Virus record (IMG/VR): IMGVR_UViG_3300045988_175547
Coordinates: 1-38,361 of that record
DNA: 38,361 nt
Reading direction: 5' to 3' (one strand)
Origin: a virus
Shown: piece after piece, positions 10,138 through 33,006 of the stretch
Numbering within the stretch: the stretch's first letter is position 1
Layout: each line of letters begins with the position of its first letter
The notes under the pieces: model-generated
The model's input: only the letters and a program-made list of their open reading frames with translations
What the model was told of the DNA's origin: nothing
The model's database searches: none
Translations under genes and position numbers: made by a program

Positions 10138-10794
10138 CTATTTCCTCTTCGCCGGGTTTTTCCACGGGGTGAACATACCGTCGACGTGTATACCGAGGTC
10201 GCTTCTGAACGGGTGCCACATCGGGTCAAGGATGAAGTCGACCCCGTTCCTGCGAGCGAACTTCGCGGCTGGGACAAAATCGCTGTCTCCGGTGATGAGG
10301 ACGATCTGGTCGGCGTAGCGATTCATCGCTATCAATGCGACATCGAGCCCTATGCGGACATCGACGCCCTTCTGCTGCACATCGAGAATGTAATCGCTGT
10401 CGTCGAGGCTGCCGACGTCCCGCTTCCCGCGAACGAGGTCTTTCGAGACCGAGCTTTTGAGCACGAACTCACCCGACGTCTCTAGCGTCTGCCCTTTTCG
10501 TATAGCCAGTTTCCGAATCTTCGCAAGCTCGTCGAAGAACGACGTCTTCCAGGCGTACTCAGGGGTTTTGGACTGGTCGAACGTCCTGTTGTGCAGCGGG
10601 TGGAAGACCTTCTTAGCGATCGGGTCGCAGTCGTAATAAAAGATGCGGTAGAGTTCGGCATTCTCATGGTTCGCATGGGCTCTGCAGTATCTAGCGAGCT
10701 CCGATGCCCTTTCTTTCGGGTCTAGCTCGCCTCGGAGGTTCTTTGCCCTCTTGAGGTAGAACCCGCCGTCAACCAGTACGGCCATCTTGTGCAT
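10138..10794 (-). CDS. NYN-domain (LabA/DUF88-like, PIN-fold) putative ribonuclease
   Basis: MAVLVDGGFY, QKGVDVRIGLDVA and IVLITGDSDFVPA carry the conserved acidic residues of NYN/PIN nucleases. A GGAGA RBS precedes the ATG. Confidence 0.8.
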   Translation of the reverse strand: MHKMAVLVDGGFYLKRAKNLRGELDPKERASELARYCRAHANHENAELYRIFYYDCDPIAKKVFHPLHNRTFDQSKTPEYAWKTSFFDELAKIRKLAIRKGQTLETSGEFVLKSSVSKDLVRGKRDVGSLDDSDYILDVQQKGVDVRIGLDVALIAMNRYADQIVLITGDSDFVPAAKFARRNGVDFILDPMWHPFRSDLGIHVDGMFTPWKNPAKRK

Positions 10795-24877: not shown

Positions 24878-26038
24878 TCAGCGTGTAACCCTTCGCATGG
24901 GCGTTAGTCCTGTTTCCTTATCGATGCGATTCGGGTCGATAAGAATCGCCGTCTCGCCAGGGGCGAGGGCTTCTAGCGCGTCTTTCCGCGCCTGGTCTAT
25001 ATCATCCACAAGCATTGCGTAATGGCCTGCCGTGGCGGTTCCTCCATCAACGCGGGCTTGCCGCATGGATGAAATGCTTTCGCCGACGTTTCCGCCGCCT
25101 GAGATATCGTCAACGCCCCACGAGAGGCCGTTCATGCGCACCGGCGCGCCGGGCTTGGTGGTTGTGGACGTGGCGAACCCATGCGCCGCGAGCTGCGACG
25201 TGACGGGCGAATACTCGTTGTCTTCGTAAGCGGGGGCCTGGTTATCCCAGCTCCATGCTTTCGCGCGCTTGTTAATCTCGTTGCAAATCGAGTCCGTGAT
25301 TCGCTTGTTGATAACGTCCGCGTGCTCCCCGCGCATGTCCTTGCGGATTTGCTCAGGGTCTACCGCTTTTCGCGCATCGAGGTAGACGGAATAGAGCCAA
25401 TCAGGGTCATAGCCTTCCACCTCTGTGAACTCATCGCCCGCGACAACGCGGCAATCACAGCGGTCGTGGAATCGGTTGAAACCGAACCCCATATCGCCCG
25501 CCGATTGACGGCTCTTGTAATCGAACCCGCGAGACGCGAGCATGACGCAAAAGCCGCAGGTCTCCTTGCCCGTGGGAACGCGAGCGTATCGCGCGCCCTT
25601 CGAGTAGTCGCGCTCTGCGTTTTTGATCGTCGTGTCGTTCGCCGCACGCCCAACGTCGTTATAGGCGCGCTCAGCCATAGCCTGAGCGAATGCGTTAAAG
25701 TTGTCGGGCGTGACGTTATGCACGAAATAATTGACGGTCGCTTGCGCCTTGGGAACGCTCACCGGGTTGTGGATTTGCGCCGGGCTGGTATCGATGCCCA
25801 GCTCATCCATCGTCACATCGTAGGCTGAGCACGCAATGGAAGCCGCCGCATCACCGAACTCCCTACGGCACGTGATGAACGTCTCCAACGCGAACTCGCG
25901 CATGGTCTCGTCATCGATAGCGCCGCCGTTCAGCTCGTAAAAGGTGCGCAACGACGTTTGCATGAAGTTGAACGCGGCCCTTTGCTGCGCATTGAGCGCC
26001 TGCGTATAGGCTTCGAGCCTACTTGCTGGTATCTGCAT
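24878..26038 (-). CDS. MuF / SPP1 gp7-like minor head protein with about 180-aa C-terminal extension
   Basis: The core motif ETCGFCVMLASRGFDYKSRQ...FHDRCDCRVV follows the portal gene. Residues after about aa 202 have no recognised motif. Confidence 0.8.
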   Translation of the reverse strand: MQIPASRLEAYTQALNAQQRAAFNFMQTSLRTFYELNGGAIDDETMREFALETFITCRREFGDAAASIACSAYDVTMDELGIDTSPAQIHNPVSVPKAQATVNYFVHNVTPDNFNAFAQAMAERAYNDVGRAANDTTIKNAERDYSKGARYARVPTGKETCGFCVMLASRGFDYKSRQSAGDMGFGFNRFHDRCDCRVVAGDEFTEVEGYDPDWLYSVYLDARKAVDPEQIRKDMRGEHADVINKRITDSICNEINKRAKAWSWDNQAPAYEDNEYSPVTSQLAAHGFATSTTTKPGAPVRMNGLSWGVDDISGGGNVGESISSMRQARVDGGTATAGHYAMLVDDIDQARKDALEALAPGETAILIDPNRIDKETGLTPMRRVTR

Positions 26039-27452: not shown

Positions 27453-28960
27453 AGAATCACACATCCCCCGTCAGGGTCGCGTTTTGTCGTTTTTGCGGCC
27501 CAGTAGGCGATAACAGCCGCTTCTATCGGTGTGGACGAATCGCCGCCGTATGCCCATCCACCGTCTGAGCCAATCGGGCGCTTGCGGGCTTCGAGCGCGC
27601 TCGCGTTAAATGCCTGCTGCGCGTTGTCTTCGCCGCCGTCCCAATGGGTCAACGTCTTATCGATGAGCGCTTGCGAGAACAGCGTCGTTGCGTTGATAAC
27701 GTCCTTGGTGGTGGTGGAAAAGAGGGCTTGGCGCGGGTAATACTCGCGCAAGCGGTCGAGCAGCGCCGCCGCGCCGTTCCGCCCATCCACTGCAATTGCT
27801 GCGGTGGTATCGGCCATATCGTCGGTACAGAGAAAATCGGTTAGCCAAGAAAGGCCGTCTGCCAAAGTGCCTTGCCCGATATGCTCAACGTATCCGTTGC
27901 CTTCCTCACTCAATCTGCAAGCGCACAGCGCGATTTGGCTACCGTCCGGCGAGAACTTCACGCCGAAGGTCTTCTTGCCGTCTGTGGGCACCTGAGCGCG
28001 CGGGATAGCCAGAGACAGCCATAGCGATTCATCGATAGCGCTTGCGCTGCTCGAACCGCTCCACCAATCCAAGCGCTCGTGCGCGAAGCCGGAGATATTT
28101 CCCTTGGCTCCCGCGAACTCGCTTTCGGTGTAACCCTCATCCAGCACGTATCCCATGGATGGGTTCGATTCGTAAATCTCATCCAGGATGTCGGCGAACG
28201 TGCAATCCTTTGGCGGTAGCTTCTCACACGCCCAGGATGCCCAGCACATGCGCCGCATGCCGCCATCCAGTACAGACTTGCGCACGCGGGCGAAAACAGT
28301 GCCCGCGCTGCGCTCGTTCGGCGGTGTCCCCATGTAAAGGATTTGGCGCTCGCCTGTGGAAGACGCAGCCAGGGTGTACGCGATAGCGTCATATTGCGTA
28401 TCGGTAAGCTCCTGAGCCTCGTCGTACACGACCAGCTGGATATCGTCGAAACCGCGCGCCGTGCCGTTGGTTCGGGCGATAAATTCGATTGAGCCGCCGT
28501 TTTTCAGGAAAATTGCCTCTTCGCCGTTCGTTCGGCGAATACGCTCAACCAGCTCGCATAGCTCTGGATGCCGCTCGTCGGTGAAGTAGCGCACGAGGCG
28601 CATGAACGACTTCTTGGCGGTCTTGACGCGGTGCGCCGTGTGGAGCACGTGCCAGCCGCACACGGCGATGCGGTAGAGCTCGTAGACCTCAAGGGCCGCG
28701 TTCTTGCCGTTCTGGCGCGGAACGTCCAGGCCACAGGTCACATAGGCTGGCTTGCCGCGCTCGTCGCACGCGCACCAATCGGTCAAGATGCCGCGCTGCC
28801 ACGGGAACGGAGAGATGCCCAAGTCCTCGCCGAGGGCGATGGCGTCCTCGGCTTCGGTGTAAGACACCTCGCCGTTCCGGTAAGCCCTACGCGGTTCCTG
28901 CCTGCCTCTGCGCACGGTTTCCCGAGACGATGGAGAGGATGCTTGCTCGCTTTGCGCCAC
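27449..28960 (-). CDS. terL: Terminase large subunit
   Basis: A Walker A-like segment (GLDVPRQNGKNAA) and a Walker B-like segment (LVVYDEAQE) are present, with a C-terminal nuclease-like region. The start is uncertain. A GTG at 28960 follows a GAGGAGG RBS; alternatives are TTG at 28993 and GTG at 28867. Confidence 0.9.
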   Translation of the reverse strand: MAQSEQASSPSSRETVRRGRQEPRRAYRNGEVSYTEAEDAIALGEDLGISPFPWQRGILTDWCACDERGKPAYVTCGLDVPRQNGKNAALEVYELYRIAVCGWHVLHTAHRVKTAKKSFMRLVRYFTDERHPELCELVERIRRTNGEEAIFLKNGGSIEFIARTNGTARGFDDIQLVVYDEAQELTDTQYDAIAYTLAASSTGERQILYMGTPPNERSAGTVFARVRKSVLDGGMRRMCWASWACEKLPPKDCTFADILDEIYESNPSMGYVLDEGYTESEFAGAKGNISGFAHERLDWWSGSSSASAIDESLWLSLAIPRAQVPTDGKKTFGVKFSPDGSQIALCACRLSEEGNGYVEHIGQGTLADGLSWLTDFLCTDDMADTTAAIAVDGRNGAAALLDRLREYYPRQALFSTTTKDVINATTLFSQALIDKTLTHWDGGEDNAQQAFNASALEARKRPIGSDGGWAYGGDSSTPIEAAVIAYWAAKTTKRDPDGGCVIL

Positions 28961-29267
28961 TCTCCACCTCCTCGTGGGTGTCGCAGATTCCAAGCTGCTT
29001 GTTCAGCTGCCGAATCTCCGCGCTTGCTGTTTTCAAAGTTCCGATTTGCGGGAACGCCTTCAAATCGCCCATGTCGTTCGAGTAGGCCGTCTGCCCGCCG
29101 AAATTGTCTAGCTCTTCCTGAGCTGTCTCAGCGATTTTGTACCATTGGCAAAGCAGGGAGAGCGCAGGCACATCGGACTGCGAAAACGCGCGCCCCTGCG
29201 TCAGCTCGTCCCATTTCGCGGATTTGAAAGCATCCGATTCGATGCCAGATGGCTTTATGATGGGCAC
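28887..29267 (-). CDS. terS: Terminase small subunit (P27-family-like)
   Basis: 126 aa, GTG start. KWDELTQ...SDVPALSLLCQWYKIAETAQEEL...LNKQLGI resembles P27-family TerS. The gene lies upstream of and overlaps terL. Confidence 0.75.
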   Translation of the reverse strand: MPIIKPSGIESDAFKSAKWDELTQGRAFSQSDVPALSLLCQWYKIAETAQEELDNFGGQTAYSNDMGDLKAFPQIGTLKTASAEIRQLNKQLGICDTHEEVESGAKRASILSIVSGNRAQRQAGTA

Positions 29268-29288
29268 GCGATCACATCCAATCGGTAA

Positions 29289-29314
29289 TAAAAAAGCCGC
29301 TACGAAGGACGGCT
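29289..29314 (-). terminator. Hairpin + U-tract between the AT-rich island and terS
   Basis: On the minus strand AGCCG pairs with CGGCT (29314..29295), followed by TTTTTTATTA. It shares the AAAAAAGCCGCT 12-mer. Confidence 0.55.
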
Positions 29315-29388
29315 GTTGGAAAGCACTCGGAATTGCACCGGGGTTTCTCCAACAAGGGGACTGCTAACTGTGCTTTTTGGCGATTTTG

Positions 29389-29748
29389 CTACTCGATGAA
29401 CTTCTCGACATAGCGGCGAACGATCGTCTCGCAGATGTCTTTTAGAAGCGGATAAGGCATGTCAACGCCCGCAGCCTTGAGAGTGTGAATGCAGATACGC
29501 CAAACATCGGGCTGCTCAATCATCCGCAGGAAATCGTCACCGCCATCCGTAAGCCCGTGAACCGAACCTCCTAGGCATATATCGCCGTTGAACTCTAGCG
29601 AACTGGAAATAAGCCCCTCGCGCTTCATGCGTTTAAGTTCATCAACCACGGTGAAGCGATCAATGAAACCAGAGAACTCATCGAACGACAGCTCATTGCT
29701 TTTGGAGATGAATGTGAGCAATGAGCGCATTGTTTCGTAATCACGCAT
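29389..29748 (-). CDS. DUF2513-like winged-helix protein
   Basis: 119 aa. The overall pattern (MRDYETMRSLLTFI..., LTDGGDDFLRMIEQPDVW...) resembles DUF2513 proteins. The coding sequence is AT-rich. Confidence 0.55.
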   Translation of the reverse strand: MRDYETMRSLLTFISKSNELSFDEFSGFIDRFTVVDELKRMKREGLISSSLEFNGDICLGGSVHGLTDGGDDFLRMIEQPDVWRICIHTLKAAGVDMPYPLLKDICETIVRRYVEKFIE

Positions 29749-29750
29749 GG

Positions 29751-30029
29751 CTAATCACCATCAAATTGCTCAATAGGGATTTCTGTAAATTTGCCATCTA
29801 GGCTCATTTTGTAATCGTGAAGCTCATCACCGATTTCATCAAGAACGGCAGCGAAATTCAATGTGCTGCCATCGTTCTTCATGACAGCACACGGCCCGTT
29901 CCCACCAATGCTCATGTCATCATATTTACTGAAAACAAATGCATTCTCATACTCAGTGCAAAAGTCGAAAAAAGCTTTATCGCTCATCTTGCTAAGCGCT
30001 ATATCTCTTGCAATGTTGATATCAACCAT
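29751..30029 (-). CDS. Small acidic protein, candidate immunity/partner of the upstream toxin-like gene
   Basis: 92 aa with an AAGGAG RBS, AT-rich. Its size, acidity and position directly 3' of the toxin-like gene suggest an immunity role. No family identified with confidence. Confidence 0.4.
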   Translation of the reverse strand: MVDINIARDIALSKMSDKAFFDFCTEYENAFVFSKYDDMSIGGNGPCAVMKNDGSTLNFAAVLDEIGDELHDYKMSLDGKFTEIPIEQFDGD

Positions 30030-30040
30030 AGAGCACTCCT

Positions 30041-30691
30041 TTAATACTTGCGTGAAGTGACAGAATCTTTCGCCCTATCAGATATCCGCAGGTTATCCGT
30101 CCTGACGATGTTCACGCTTCCCGGCTTCGCTCTTTTCTGAATCTCAGCAGCAGTATACCGCTTATTCCTTTGAGCATCTATGTATAGCGTCTTTCCATTT
30201 TGTCTTTCAAGATTAAAGACGTGCGCACCGCCGTTGCGCCACATCACCTGAAGAACGGCTCTTGAGCCATTCCCGTACTCAGCCATCTTGCTATCAACTT
30301 TAGCAATCATTTTTTGCCCAGTACCAGCTCCAACGTATTCTGTTTTTGCGTTTGAAAATGCGCGAGTCCATCGTGATTTATAAATGCCATTCTTGCGGTC
30401 AACATAAGCGATCTCACCCACCTTGTCACCTTTATATGTTGGCTGAGCGGAGACTTTATAGCCACGCCTACGCAACTCGTATGCGACAACGGCCCGTTGG
30501 CAATTTTCAGAATACTCCGAGTATGCGCGAGAATAATGCGGATTAGCATTGCGCATTGCACTAGCAATGGATTCAGGTTCTCCCTTAACACCGAGCGCTT
30601 GCTTCAACGTTTCATCGATTCTTGTTCCAAGCCCGCCAGAAAAACGGTGCGGACCATTATTCGAAAAACTAGCAACCCCTCTACCGCCCAT
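30041..30691 (-). CDS. Papain-fold toxin-like protein (Tox-PL1 / toxin glutamine deamidase-like domain)
   Basis: SENCQRAVVAYELRRRGYKVSAQP (Cys) and NGGAHVFNLERQNGKTLYIDAQ (His, Asp/Gln) match the remembered Tox-PL1 signature. The ATG at 30691 has an AAGGCAGG RBS and overlaps the end of the upstream gene. Confidence 0.65.
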   Translation of the reverse strand: MGGRGVASFSNNGPHRFSGGLGTRIDETLKQALGVKGEPESIASAMRNANPHYSRAYSEYSENCQRAVVAYELRRRGYKVSAQPTYKGDKVGEIAYVDRKNGIYKSRWTRAFSNAKTEYVGAGTGQKMIAKVDSKMAEYGNGSRAVLQVMWRNGGAHVFNLERQNGKTLYIDAQRNKRYTAAEIQKRAKPGSVNIVRTDNLRISDRAKDSVTSRKY

Positions 30692-31694
30692 GAAATCCAC
30701 CTGCCTTGTACTCGACGACCTCGCAGCCGCCGAAATCGAATCCCATGTTCTTGCCGTACAGCAGCACGCGCGACGGCTCCAGGCGCCTCATGGCCTCCCT
30801 CATGCCGTCGTGCCACACCTTCTGGGCATCCCTGTCGCGTGCCACGCCGACAGTGGACGTTGCCACGGTCGAGTGCTTGGGAATGCCATTGAAGCAGAAT
30901 CTGTAGCTGGACGGTTGCGCCCACGAAAGCGTAGGAACAACCGTGATACCGTTCTGCGCCCAGAACCAGCCCAGCGCCGCGCTGCGGTAACGGTTCCACT
31001 CCTGCATCGCGTCGGGCATGTCCATGTACAGGCTGAAATCCGGCGTGAGCACGCATTTATAAGGCTTCAACACGTCCAGGTAACGCGCAGGGCGCTGCCA
31101 AAGCCGCTCGAACTGATAATCGTCAATGAAGAAATGACAACCGAGGTCGGCTTTGTCTTCCGCCTTGGTTGTCTTCGCGTAATTGAAGCCCTGAAGCTCG
31201 CGCGGCCCCTCCACATCCACGTTAGGTAGTGGTGGAAAGCCGTCACGCCCGCAGCAATAGCGATTGATCGTATCGAGGTTATACGCGCGGTCTGTTTTCA
31301 ACCGCTCCGCGCCGTAATCGAGTTTCTTACTCTTAAAGTCAATGCCGAATCGCGTCATATCGAAGTCTTTCAGGCTCCGAACTTCCTCACGCAGCATTGA
31401 TTTGTTATACGTGGCAATATCGCCCGTTTTGTTGTCTGCGATACGAAACGCCTTGATTTGCTCAGCGCTCAAATCGTCGCAAAACTCGATTTTCGAATCC
31501 GGTATCTCCGTCCAGCCTAGCGACTTGCACGCCGCCACGCGGGTGTGTCCGAACACGATAACGGGGTTTTCCGGCGATTCCAAACCGATAGTTCCGCGCA
31601 AACCGAACTCACGAATTGACTCCGCAACCTTCGGAATCGCACGCTCATTGTGGCGCGCGTTGCGCTCATACGGGATAATCTCTGAAATGAGCAT
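30681..31694 (-). CDS. ParB-like nuclease N-terminal domain + DUF4417 protein
   Basis: The N-terminus (ISEIIPYERNARHN...IVFGHTRVAACKSLG) is ParB/Srx-like. The C-terminus (HFFIDDYQFERLW...LTPDFSLYMDMP...VVPTLSW) is DUF4417-like. The ATG at 31694 follows an AGAGGTGG RBS. Confidence 0.75.
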   Translation of the reverse strand: MLISEIIPYERNARHNERAIPKVAESIREFGLRGTIGLESPENPVIVFGHTRVAACKSLGWTEIPDSKIEFCDDLSAEQIKAFRIADNKTGDIATYNKSMLREEVRSLKDFDMTRFGIDFKSKKLDYGAERLKTDRAYNLDTINRYCCGRDGFPPLPNVDVEGPRELQGFNYAKTTKAEDKADLGCHFFIDDYQFERLWQRPARYLDVLKPYKCVLTPDFSLYMDMPDAMQEWNRYRSAALGWFWAQNGITVVPTLSWAQPSSYRFCFNGIPKHSTVATSTVGVARDRDAQKVWHDGMREAMRRLEPSRVLLYGKNMGFDFGGCEVVEYKAGGFHGR

Positions 31695-31835
31695 GCACAC
31701 CACCTCTGAGCTGCTAAAACTTCAATGGCCCGATTTTTTCCACACTTGGGGGGTATTTCGGCCCATGCGCGAAGGGGGCCGTGAACACCAGGGGGAGGGT
31801 AACCCCCACCCCGCTTTTGCACCGGGTTTTGTTAA

Positions 31836-32446: not shown

Positions 32447-32483
32447 AAAACAAAAAAGCCCCGCATGCCTGAGCACACGGGGC
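32447..32483 (-). terminator. Rho-independent terminator separating the regulator gene from the late operon
   Basis: On the minus strand GCCCCG pairs with CGGGGC (32483..32458), followed by TTTTTTGTTTT. Confidence 0.8.
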
Positions 32484-32489
32484 TATATG

Positions 32490-32948
32490 TTAGTTAAATA
32501 GGGCTGTTTGGCCCATGCCGCTTTTTGCTTGCGCTATGCCTACTGAATCAATCCAGTCTAGCGCGGTCGATATATCAAGCTGGGCCTGGCGCTCTGAGAT
32601 TCCTAGCGCGTTGGCCGTCTGGTACCAGGTCATATCCTCTACGTAATGTAGCTCTAAAGCATCTGCCCAGCGCTGCGTTGCGTTGGCGGCCCGCACGCCA
32701 CGGCAGAGCTCGCGGCCCTCTTCCACTTCCGCGCGCATGTCGGCGAGGTCTGAAAGGGCCGCATTTTCCGCGTCGATTCGTATATCGGTGGCGCGCATAA
32801 CGTCCTTGTTGCCTGTGGCGTGTCCGATTGCATCGTAGGTTTGGGCGCGCACCTCCTCGCGGGCGCGCATCGACGCGAGGACGGCCAAGCGCCTATCAAT
32901 GGCTCTCTGGCACGCCCTCACGCCTTCGAAATACTCTTTCGCCGTCAT
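32490..32948 (-). CDS. Sigma-70 region-4-like HTH protein (candidate late transcription activator)
   Basis: ALELHYVEDMTWYQTANALGISERQAQLDISTALDWI resembles sigma region 4 and RinA/ArpU-type late regulators. The gene lies directly upstream of the packaging genes. The ATG is at 32948 (the track start is TTG). Confidence 0.6.
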   Translation of the reverse strand: MTAKEYFEGVRACQRAIDRRLAVLASMRAREEVRAQTYDAIGHATGNKDVMRATDIRIDAENAALSDLADMRAEVEEGRELCRGVRAANATQRWADALELHYVEDMTWYQTANALGISERQAQLDISTALDWIDSVGIAQAKSGMGQTALFN

Positions 32949-33006
32949 GGCATTAACCCCCAAATTATGCCGTTTAACTGCATAATTGTATCAAAATACC
33001 AGCGGT

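Follow-up and report, generated by a model that had tools for sequence, protein, structure and literature searches.

The DNA analysed here is IMG/VR record IMGVR_UViG_3300045988_175547, a window of 38,361 nucleotides whose positions serve as coordinates throughout. We characterized three packed minus-strand open reading frames (ORFs) lying between a ParB/DUF4417 gene and terS, the gene for the terminase small subunit. They encode a free-standing papain-fold enzyme of the Tox-PL1 family, a small acidic partner and a winged helix-turn-helix (wHTH)-like protein. An initial annotation, made from the letters of the window, had read them as a horizontally acquired three-gene module of toxin, immunity protein and DUF2513-like winged-helix protein, and all three ORFs are present where it had placed them. 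The features of the locus are as follows; numbers preceded by L are our handles for the loci compared.

30041..30691, minus strand: free-standing Tox-PL1/Gln_amidase papain-fold enzyme (Pfam PF15644), 216 aa, pI 10.2 (10.16).
30665..30691, minus strand: N-terminal leader of the enzyme, M-G-G-R-G-V-A-S-F (family consensus M-GGRG-[A/S]-[S/G]-S-G).
29751..30029, minus strand: acidic 92-aa partner, pI 4.1 (4.10), of an orphan family; putative inhibitor or immunity protein from its adjacency to PF15644 genes.
29389..29748, minus strand: 119-aa winged-helix-like (wHTH) protein, phrog_585, sub-threshold DUF2513; a separate insertion.
29283..30683, no strand: segment replaced relative to the closest relative, L280 (blastn boundaries); the hypervariable slot.
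30681..31703, minus strand: ParB_N-DUF4417 protein, 340 aa, left anchor of the slot (Pfam DUF4417, 197.8 bits; phrog_940 and ParB PHROGs).
28887..29267, minus strand: terminase small subunit (terS), right anchor of the slot (Pfam Terminase_4, 30.8 bits; phrog_83).
29295..29314, minus strand: weak terminator-like hairpin with a 6-bp stem and a T-run; it lies in the wHTH–terS spacer, and its significance is doubtful.

The enzyme ATG overlaps the stop of the DUF4417 gene by 11 nt, in line with the overlap described initially. Although the longest ORF of the enzyme gene opens with a GTG at position 30700, the N-termini of homologs favour the ATG as the start, which gives the 216-aa product. The 92-aa gene begins 11 nt past the enzyme stop, with a Shine–Dalgarno (SD) sequence, AGGAG, 8 nt upstream of it, and the 119-aa gene begins 2 nt after the 92-aa gene. 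Downstream of terS the gene order is terL, portal, VG15 protein, scaffold protein and major capsid protein. A consensus scan detected no promoter-like site upstream of the enzyme gene, a result that carries little weight for an actinobacterial host; the lack of a promoter-like signal of their own, the shared orientation and the overlapping start are consistent with the earlier placement of these genes in the late operon.

The 216-aa product matched PF15644 (Gln_amidase) over residues 66-179 at 59.2 bits, well above the cutoff of 24.1, in the Pfam profile search that the initial annotation had proposed as a check. In an alignment of 36 homologs, N63-C64-Q65-R66, H157 and Q174 were invariant and position 172 was either D or E. 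The codons of C64, H157 and Q174 lie at 30500-30502, 30221-30223 and 30170-30172, respectively, with D172-x-Q174 as the third element; NC-H-DxQ is the signature that defines Tox-PL1 (Zhang 2012, PMC3482391). A C-terminal R-x-D-N-L-x-x-S-x-R motif, outside the Pfam domain, was also conserved. An AlphaFold2 (AF2) model of the enzyme was of high confidence (predicted local distance difference test, pLDDT, 89; predicted template-modelling score, pTM, 0.88) except for residues 1-12, which were disordered (pLDDT < 50). Foldseek searches of the PDB with this model returned top matches that were all papain-fold proteins: AvrPphB, BpJOS (a Josephin-type clippase), OspI (a glutamine deamidase), RavD and the C39 peptidase of PCAT1. 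No close solved structure was found in these searches (best E ~9e-3). The enzyme is, as had been recognized from its sequence, a papain-fold protein of the Tox-PL1 family (PF15644) whose catalytic signature is intact, and both peptide strings quoted for it earlier are found in its translation. Its activity would be that of a protease or of a glutamine deamidase.

PF15644 was present in all 120 listed homologs of the enzyme. The free-standing form had been regarded as unusual; we found at least 239 protein clusters, of ~214-245 aa, with PF15644 as the sole domain, and UniProt and BFVD already name such proteins automatically. Among BFVD structures, a free-standing 224-aa phage protein named 'Papain fold toxin 1' matched the model best (TM 0.89); next came a mycobacteriophage 'VIP2-like toxin' and MuF fusions. 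In distant homologs (28-40% identity) PF15644 is the C-terminal domain of proteins of 300-750 aa with a Phage_Mu_F or Phage_min_cap2 N-terminus; in the 216-aa enzyme, Pfam detected no Phage_Mu_F, Phage_min_cap2 or VG15 domain. Two further forms were observed. On Collinsella and viral contigs (L132, 4749-5927, and L082), a 392-aa PF15644 protein has another N-terminus, with a short DUF7211 motif (YGILGMKWGVRR) and a stretch predicted to be hydrophobic, and is followed by a gene of the partner family; this may be a third mode of deployment of the domain. On Clostridia contigs L101, L104, L106, L108 and L109, free-standing PF15644 proteins of 183-185 aa have neither the GGRG leader nor the partner and mostly lack an upstream DUF4417 gene.

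The 92-aa acidic protein had been described as immunity-like in size and position. Homologs of it adjoined all enzyme homologs first examined, with identities (57%, 57% and 41%) that tracked enzyme divergence. An iterated hidden Markov model (HMM) search then identified 103 members of the partner family in ~150 loci, and all 103 were adjacent to a PF15644 ORF, 5 of them beside frameshifted or broken ORFs. The partner lies directly downstream of 58 of 68 free-standing and 40 of 61 MuF-fused PF15644 genes, at distances of -40 to +33 nt with a single exception of +86 nt; this consistency of position argues that the hits are not the result of profile drift. Since the partner adjoins both forms, the pairing predates the split between free-standing and fused enzymes. 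Pairwise distances correlated more closely between enzyme and partner (r = 0.74) than between enzyme and flanking DUF4417 (r = 0.56), and the two proteins are complementary in charge (pI 10.2 and 4.1). Conservation, co-divergence and an immediately downstream position across ~100 loci, along with the pI of 4.10, agree with the earlier description. Enzyme and partner thus carry the hallmarks of a toxin–immunity or enzyme–inhibitor pair, in which the acidic protein would bind and neutralize the enzyme. Weak Pfam matches in the partner family, one to PepSY (E = 0.002) and one to Imm-NTF2-2 (E = 0.018), were unconvincing, and the partner had no Pfam match to Imm35 or SUKH.

Comparison with related phages, which the initial annotation had also suggested, showed that the content of the slot is swapped in the closest relative and that its boundaries are sharp. 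Flanking regions of the window and L280 are ~90-91% identical. Blastn homology ends at 30684, at the leader ATG, and resumes at 29282, so that the slot closes 15 nt short of terS. In L280 the slot holds a different insert, of 1.56 kb, with a leader ORF whose body has 184 aa. L086, a contig from a Collinsella metagenome-assembled genome, has the same cassette in diverged surroundings: nucleotide identity is 72% in DUF4417, 96% in the enzyme gene, 97% in the 92-aa gene and 70% in terS. Because the cassette is 96-97% identical and its flanks 70-72%, the enzyme–partner pair must have been exchanged recently, as a unit, between diverged Collinsella phages. The host of the phage in the window is probably Collinsella, an actinobacterium of the gut.

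Homology to L086 ends exactly at 29751, and the wHTH gene is absent from that contig. Its absence there, its lack of conservation beside other homologs and its intermediate GC content at third codon positions (GC3) identify the wHTH gene as a separate insertion. The AT-rich 'island' is consequently two independent insertions, and the proposal of a three-gene toxin/immunity/wHTH module is not supported. A wHTH gene was in third position in only two other loci, L005 and L006, where it encodes a YjcQ protein that BLAST does not relate to the 119-aa protein of the window. The 119-aa protein matches phrog_585 (E = 4e-6), and its resemblance to PF10711 (DUF2513), at 23.2 bits, falls short of the Pfam threshold of 29.6; no relative of the protein was found in the PDB.

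Base composition is consistent with horizontal acquisition. The island has a GC content of 0.467, whereas the mean of the window is 0.62 (standard deviation 0.06 for 1300-nt segments). GC reaches its lowest value here, and no other stretch of the window falls below 0.50; the contrast with the flanks noted initially extends to the window as a whole. The hand counts on which it was based are exact (0.350 at 29761-29820 and 0.633 at 28561-28620). GC3 is 0.43 for both the enzyme and the 92-aa genes, 0.61 for the wHTH gene and 0.70-0.79 for the neighbours. The low GC content and GC3 of the cassette, and its near-identity in L086 despite diverged flanks, support the earlier view that it was acquired horizontally. 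Cassettes of this type are not AT-rich in general, since the mean difference in GC content between cassette and flank was -0.006 over 48 loci; low cassette GC is specific to high-GC hosts such as the present one. In L001 (1103-1261 and 2722-2880), and also in L002, we observed two copies of a 52-aa chimeric ORF, each followed by further leader genes. The first ~17 residues of this ORF are similar to the N-terminus of terS (MxIxKPxGIESxAFxSA), and the remainder is the C-terminal end of DUF4417 (...YKAGGFHGR*). The ORF appears to be what remains of an unequal recombination event involving the two conserved flanks, which would stack cassettes in tandem.

Where MuF-fused homologs carry a head-protein domain, the window enzyme opens with the leader peptide. 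Residues G2, G3 and R4 of the leader were invariant among the 36 aligned homologs. Of the 120 listed homologs, 68 start directly with M-GGRG-(A/S/V)-S-S and 28 have this sequence after an N-terminal extension; in 24 of these 28 (24 of 120 homologs) the extension has the form M-x(3-10)-(D/N)(L/I)Q(F/L/Y)F and ends directly before GGRG. Prp, a host protease that trims ribosomal protein L27 and, in phage 80alpha, capsid as well as scaffold proteins (PMC5744158), cleaves at the motif MLxx(D/N)LQ(F/L)F'A (PMC9405229). As the extension matches this motif up to the scissile bond, both forms of the leader would mature to a free N-terminal Gly-Gly-Arg-Gly. The enzyme of the window has no Prp-type extension and opens directly with M-GGRG. 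Gly and Arg codons of the leader vary freely at synonymous sites, which indicates that the peptide itself is under selection.

Unrelated ORFs in the neighbourhood open with the same leader. We made a leader-first DNA search of viral contigs, using one codon pattern, which gave at least 130 matches. Among 130 listed matches, 122 had an SD-like sequence and 124 opened ORFs of at least 60 aa; the listed matches included no Gln_amidase and fell into at least 18 body clusters. With all samples merged, there were at least 202 unique leader ORFs and at least 36 unrelated body clusters, with up to six leader ORFs per locus. One of the bodies is a bona fide ADP-ribosyltransferase (ART; PF03496, 32.7 bits against a cutoff of 23.4, with matches to ART PHROGs), while others are JAB-like or HExxH-like at the level of motifs or of sub-threshold matches. 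The commonest body is a His-rich protein of ~131-137 aa (phrog_9479), and most match no family. A 9-aa leader on at least 36 body clusters, together with cassette replacement at sharp boundaries, fits the general description of polymorphic toxin systems in Zhang 2012, in which variable C-terminal toxin domains are attached to a conserved N-terminal trafficking module and diversify through recombination of cassettes. We infer that the leader is a trafficking module.

The leader is closely associated with DUF4417. DUF4417 was the upstream neighbour of free-standing enzyme genes in 30 of 40 loci, 15 of them with ParB_N, and the large terminase gene lay downstream in most. In the leader-first sample, which is unbiased in this respect, a DUF4417 gene was present on the same strand within 2.5 kb upstream of 101 of 108 listed leader genes (94%), adjacent or overlapping in 55 cases, and a TerL-like gene lay within 4 kb downstream in 64 of 81 listed. 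When loci were collected by DUF4417 instead, a leader gene followed directly in ~36 of 46, often with the same 11-nt overlap; the leader genes of this sample had 13 different bodies, none of them Gln_amidase. DUF4417 was upstream in 38 of 40 leader-type PF15644 loci, compared with 0 of 62 MuF-fused loci (8 of the 62 strictly assessable), so DUF4417 tracks the leader rather than the toxin domain. Leader genes occur singly or in tandem in the slot between the DUF4417 gene and terS. The phages concerned are siphoviruses of Actinobacteria and Firmicutes, and some matches lie on contigs assigned to Bacteroidota bins.

DUF4417 has many polar residues that are invariant, which suggests an enzyme. It has no relative in the PDB by sequence or profile searches, and the idea that it is a cryptic MuF domain was rejected (hhalign probability 0.1%). 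A 2025 preprint on ParB proteins lists the ParB-DUF4417 fusion and assigns it no function. Beyond this preprint, Zhang 2012 and Jamet 2017, a literature search on the GGRG leader, the function of DUF4417 and phage Tox-PL1 yielded nothing relevant. The leader, its Prp-compatible variant, the linkage to DUF4417 and the hypervariable slot, none of which appears in the initial annotation, are apparently undescribed.

The same arrangement is present in cultured phages. Streptococcus phage A25 (NC_028697) has, in order, DUF4417 (gp22), gp23, terS, terL, portal and minor head protein genes, and the arrangement in Roseburia phage Jekyll is like that in A25. The GenBank start of A25 gp23 (L276 4465-4875) is miscalled: the ORF opens 27 nt upstream with ATGGGTGGTAGAGGAGCAAGCTCTGGA (MGGRGASSG), overlapping gp22. 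The same error probably affects STR01_54 of phage Str01 (L326 1492-1875). In Mycobacterium phage Piro94, gp01 is a DUF4417 protein (245 bits), gp02 has an MGGRGG leader, a Gly/Pro linker and a Tox-PL1 domain (52.7 bits), gp03, annotated as 'immunity protein', gives a match to the partner family, and gp04 encodes an HNH endonuclease. The label 'VIP2-like toxin' given to gp02 (L278 1313-2317) is not supported: Gln_amidase is the only domain that Pfam reports, and an ADP-ribosyltransferase domain is missing. The label may have spread within a pham whose members have leader and linker in common. The annotations 'toxin' and 'immunity protein' indicate that curators already read such pairs as toxin and immunity, and the role of genes of this type has been described as unclear (PMC7302621). 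In Acutalibacter phage Fontainebleau, the genes for a MuF-Tox-PL1 protein and its partner are followed directly by one for a phage-encoded Prp cysteine protease (L279 5813-6109; Peptidase_Prp, 50.6 bits), which precedes the scaffold and capsid genes.

As a toxin–immunity pair of the MuF/Tox-PL1 kind, the cassette is of a kind already known, and its relatives are so annotated. MuF polymorphic toxins of temperate phages have been described with the MuF-Tox-PL1 architecture (Zhang 2012, PMC3482391) and generically (Jamet 2017, PMC5576092). The cassette shares with them the PF15644 domain, its N-terminal flank and the C-terminal RxDNLxxSxR motif (HMM coverage from 28-47 to 213-217), the small partner ORF directly downstream, the head and packaging context of temperate siphoviruses, and polymorphic C-terminal bodies that include an ART. 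The window enzyme differs in lacking a MuF, Phage_min_cap2 or VG15 domain, in being encoded upstream of terS rather than after the portal gene, in having a 9-aa GGRG leader, and in its linkage to DUF4417, a gene absent from all 62 MuF-fused loci. Genes gp1-gp4 of Piro94 and Centaur ('nuclease', 'VIP2-like toxin', 'immunity protein' and 'HNH endonuclease') form the same module as in the window, where an HNH gene is also nearby; the Piro94 protein gave a BFVD structural match to the window enzyme (TM 0.69, 24-30% identity) but differs in its 70-aa Gly/Pro linker, its C-terminal extension and its position at the left end of the genome, not directly before terS. Bacterial toxins with a C-terminal Tox-PL1 domain (type VII secretion WXG, SpvB/TcdB and Rhs; Zhang 2012) have the same NC-H-DxQ signature and papain-like fold, but other trafficking domains, and the partner belongs to a distinct orphan family without an Imm35 or SUKH match. 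OspI, RavD, BpJOS and AvrPphB show weak Foldseek similarity to the enzyme, none of them a close solved structure.

Two systems offer parallels to the leader. In phage T4, the internal proteins and Alt carry an N-terminal capsid-targeting sequence, and the phage uses a prohead protease of its own, gp21, and a scaffold core (reviewed in PMC9026906 and PMC9503650). The leader resembles it as a short N-terminal peptide on unrelated cargo, including an ART, expressed late and with a new N-terminus predicted to be exposed by proteolysis, and packaging with co-injection is proposed here as well; it differs in having no sequence similarity, an optional host or phage Prp motif, mostly removal of Met only, and a linked factor, DUF4417. 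The motif of 24 of the 120 homologs matches Prp substrates (L27 and 80alpha; PMC5744158, PMC9405229) up to the scissile bond, but differs from known ones in having Gly rather than Ala or Ser at P1', and cleavage is predicted from the motif.

Several other features of the window were recorded. The weak hairpin at 29295-29314 is doubtful as a terminator, since hairpins of this kind are no more numerous in the region than expected from shuffled sequence. A strong terminator-like hairpin, with a 12-bp stem, 8 GC pairs and a T-run, lies at 32457-32484 on the minus strand, between a sigma-70-region-4-like gene (32490..32963) and an HNH gene. It overlaps the start of the longest HNH ORF (GTG 32476), so HNH translation probably starts at a later codon, and this hairpin may mark the beginning of the late operon. 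After the portal gene, 24878-26038 on the minus strand encodes a 386-aa protein with a VG15 domain (PF25310, residues 5-222) and matches to 'head maturation protease' PHROGs; its C-terminal ~160 residues, in the position where MuF toxins bear the warhead, have no assigned domain. Outside the structural module, 10138-10794 on the minus strand encodes a 218-aa protein with an NYN ribonuclease-type domain (PF01936, 37 bits). A DNA search of a cultured-phage collection with the region gave a sole match, of 130 nt, to a Bifidobacterium phage.

We favour, with moderate confidence, the explanation that the locus is a leader-tagged polymorphic phage effector locus holding a mobile cassette of papain-fold enzyme and partner, with the leader serving to route the enzyme for delivery in the virion. 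The core is the two-gene cassette of Cys-His enzyme and small acidic protein, the latter most likely binding and neutralizing the enzyme in the producing cell or the lysogen. It is a free-standing equivalent of the Tox-PL1 warhead and small downstream ORF that occur at the C-terminus of MuF and minor-capsid-protein-2 polymorphic toxins of temperate phages, with the 9-residue leader (M-GGRG-x-S-S-G) and a flexible Gly/Ser-rich stretch in place of the MuF domain. Phages exchange the slot contents through recombination in the conserved flanks. The mature Gly-Gly-Arg-Gly N-terminus would be exposed by removal of Met or, in some phages, by Prp cleavage, and the leader, probably with DUF4417, would route effectors to where a MuF fusion would otherwise place them. 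The analogy of MuF toxins, and of Alt and the internal proteins of T4, makes the procapsid the likeliest destination, from which the effectors would be co-injected with the DNA. The 119-aa wHTH gene is an unrelated passenger.

Several results weigh against this explanation. The virion proteome of Str01 (PMC6195288, Table 4), the sole one found for a phage with a leader gene, does not include the leader protein APZ81907, while a low-abundance MuF-like protein and some contaminants are listed; the survey was stringent and insensitive, and concerns a different leader body. No inhibitor or immunity fold was recognized in the partner by Pfam, with the window protein and 64 diverse members, or by a PDB profile search; its AF2 model was of low confidence (pLDDT 59) and Foldseek with this model was uninformative. 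Structural matches of the enzyme to PDB entries were weak (E ~1e-2, TM 0.26-0.39). Leader genes also occur in tandem with no small ORF between them (L251 342-983 and 987-1712, L305 2579-4397, and L188), for example an ART-like leader body followed by a JAB-like one, so that the notion of a toxin needing immunity is not general for the leader family. Finally, the role given to DUF4417 is a guess from synteny for a domain with no known function and no detectable relation to MuF.

It has been proposed that MuF-fused Tox-PL1 might process proteins during assembly or release (Zhang 2012, PMC3482391), and actinophage genes with a Tox-PL1 domain are annotated as 'capsid maturation protease', also as '... 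and MuF-like fusion protein'. The enzyme, encoded in the late operon beside the packaging genes, could accordingly be a protease of head maturation or processing, acting on capsid, scaffold or other head proteins during assembly, with the 92-aa protein as a temporary inhibitor. We consider this very unlikely. L280, whose terS, terL and portal genes are ~90% identical to those of the window, lacks the gene and carries an unrelated leader protein, so the gene is dispensable in the closest relative, as an essential maturation protease would not be; the same slot elsewhere holds ARTs and other unrelated bodies; the VG15 protein of the window already matches 'head maturation protease' PHROGs; and the foreign GC3 points to recent acquisition. 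About equally improbable is a prophage toxin–antitoxin, abortive-infection or superinfection-exclusion moron that acts in the lysogen with the wHTH protein as regulator. An AT-rich, horizontally acquired toxin-like enzyme with a small acidic partner and a wHTH gene next to it would fit such a system, and immunity proteins that guard lysogens have been discussed (Jamet 2017, PMC5576092). The wHTH gene, however, is unlinked, being absent from L086 and not conserved, and the genes have no promoter-like signal of their own but are co-oriented with, and overlap, the late operon, which makes a wHTH-regulated lysogen system unlikely. Moreover, the same enzyme–partner pair is fused C-terminally to capsid-internal MuF proteins, and a simple toxin–antitoxin model leaves the leader and the DUF4417 linkage unexplained.

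It is also conceivable, though we regard it as unlikely, that leader proteins act late in the producing cell, for example by modifying host or phage factors at the DNA-packaging stage together with ParB-DUF4417 or by blunting defences that sense terminase or portal, with the partner modulating timing. The tight operonic coupling to ParB_N-DUF4417 and terS and the failure to detect the leader protein in Str01 virions are in keeping with this possibility, raised by Iyer et al. 2022 for ARTs whose genes adjoin those for packaging. In other phages, however, the identical domain and partner pair is fused to MuF or min_cap2, a Prp-type propeptide is a feature known elsewhere from procapsid proteins (PMC5744158), and a packaging-stage target has no direct support.

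The favoured explanation, that of a leader-routed effector delivered in the virion, has a broader and more tentative extension, which we regard as possible but doubtful: DUF4417 and the GGRG leader may constitute an unrecognized cargo system of siphoviruses, in which DUF4417 would recognize or process the free GGRG end and load interchangeable effectors for delivery with the genome. If so, it would be an alternative to covalent MuF fusion, would provide a function for a widespread phage DUF that is often fused to a ParB-type NTPase, and would span proteases or deamidases, ARTs, JAB-like and metallopeptidase-like enzymes, and many orphans. Effectors delivered by phages, together with the inhibitors that go with them, provide a rich supply of anti-defence factors, toxins and enzymatic tools, but stand-alone ones are hard to recognize. 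The rule of a DUF4417 gene followed by one or more leader genes and terS, combined with the 9-residue leader, exposes wrong GenBank entries (the start of A25 gp23 and the 'VIP2-like toxin' of Piro94) and gives DUF4417 a testable function. It picks out hundreds of candidate effectors, mostly of no assigned function, in gut, oral and soil phages, including the tractable A25/Str01, Jekyll and cluster-A mycobacteriophages.

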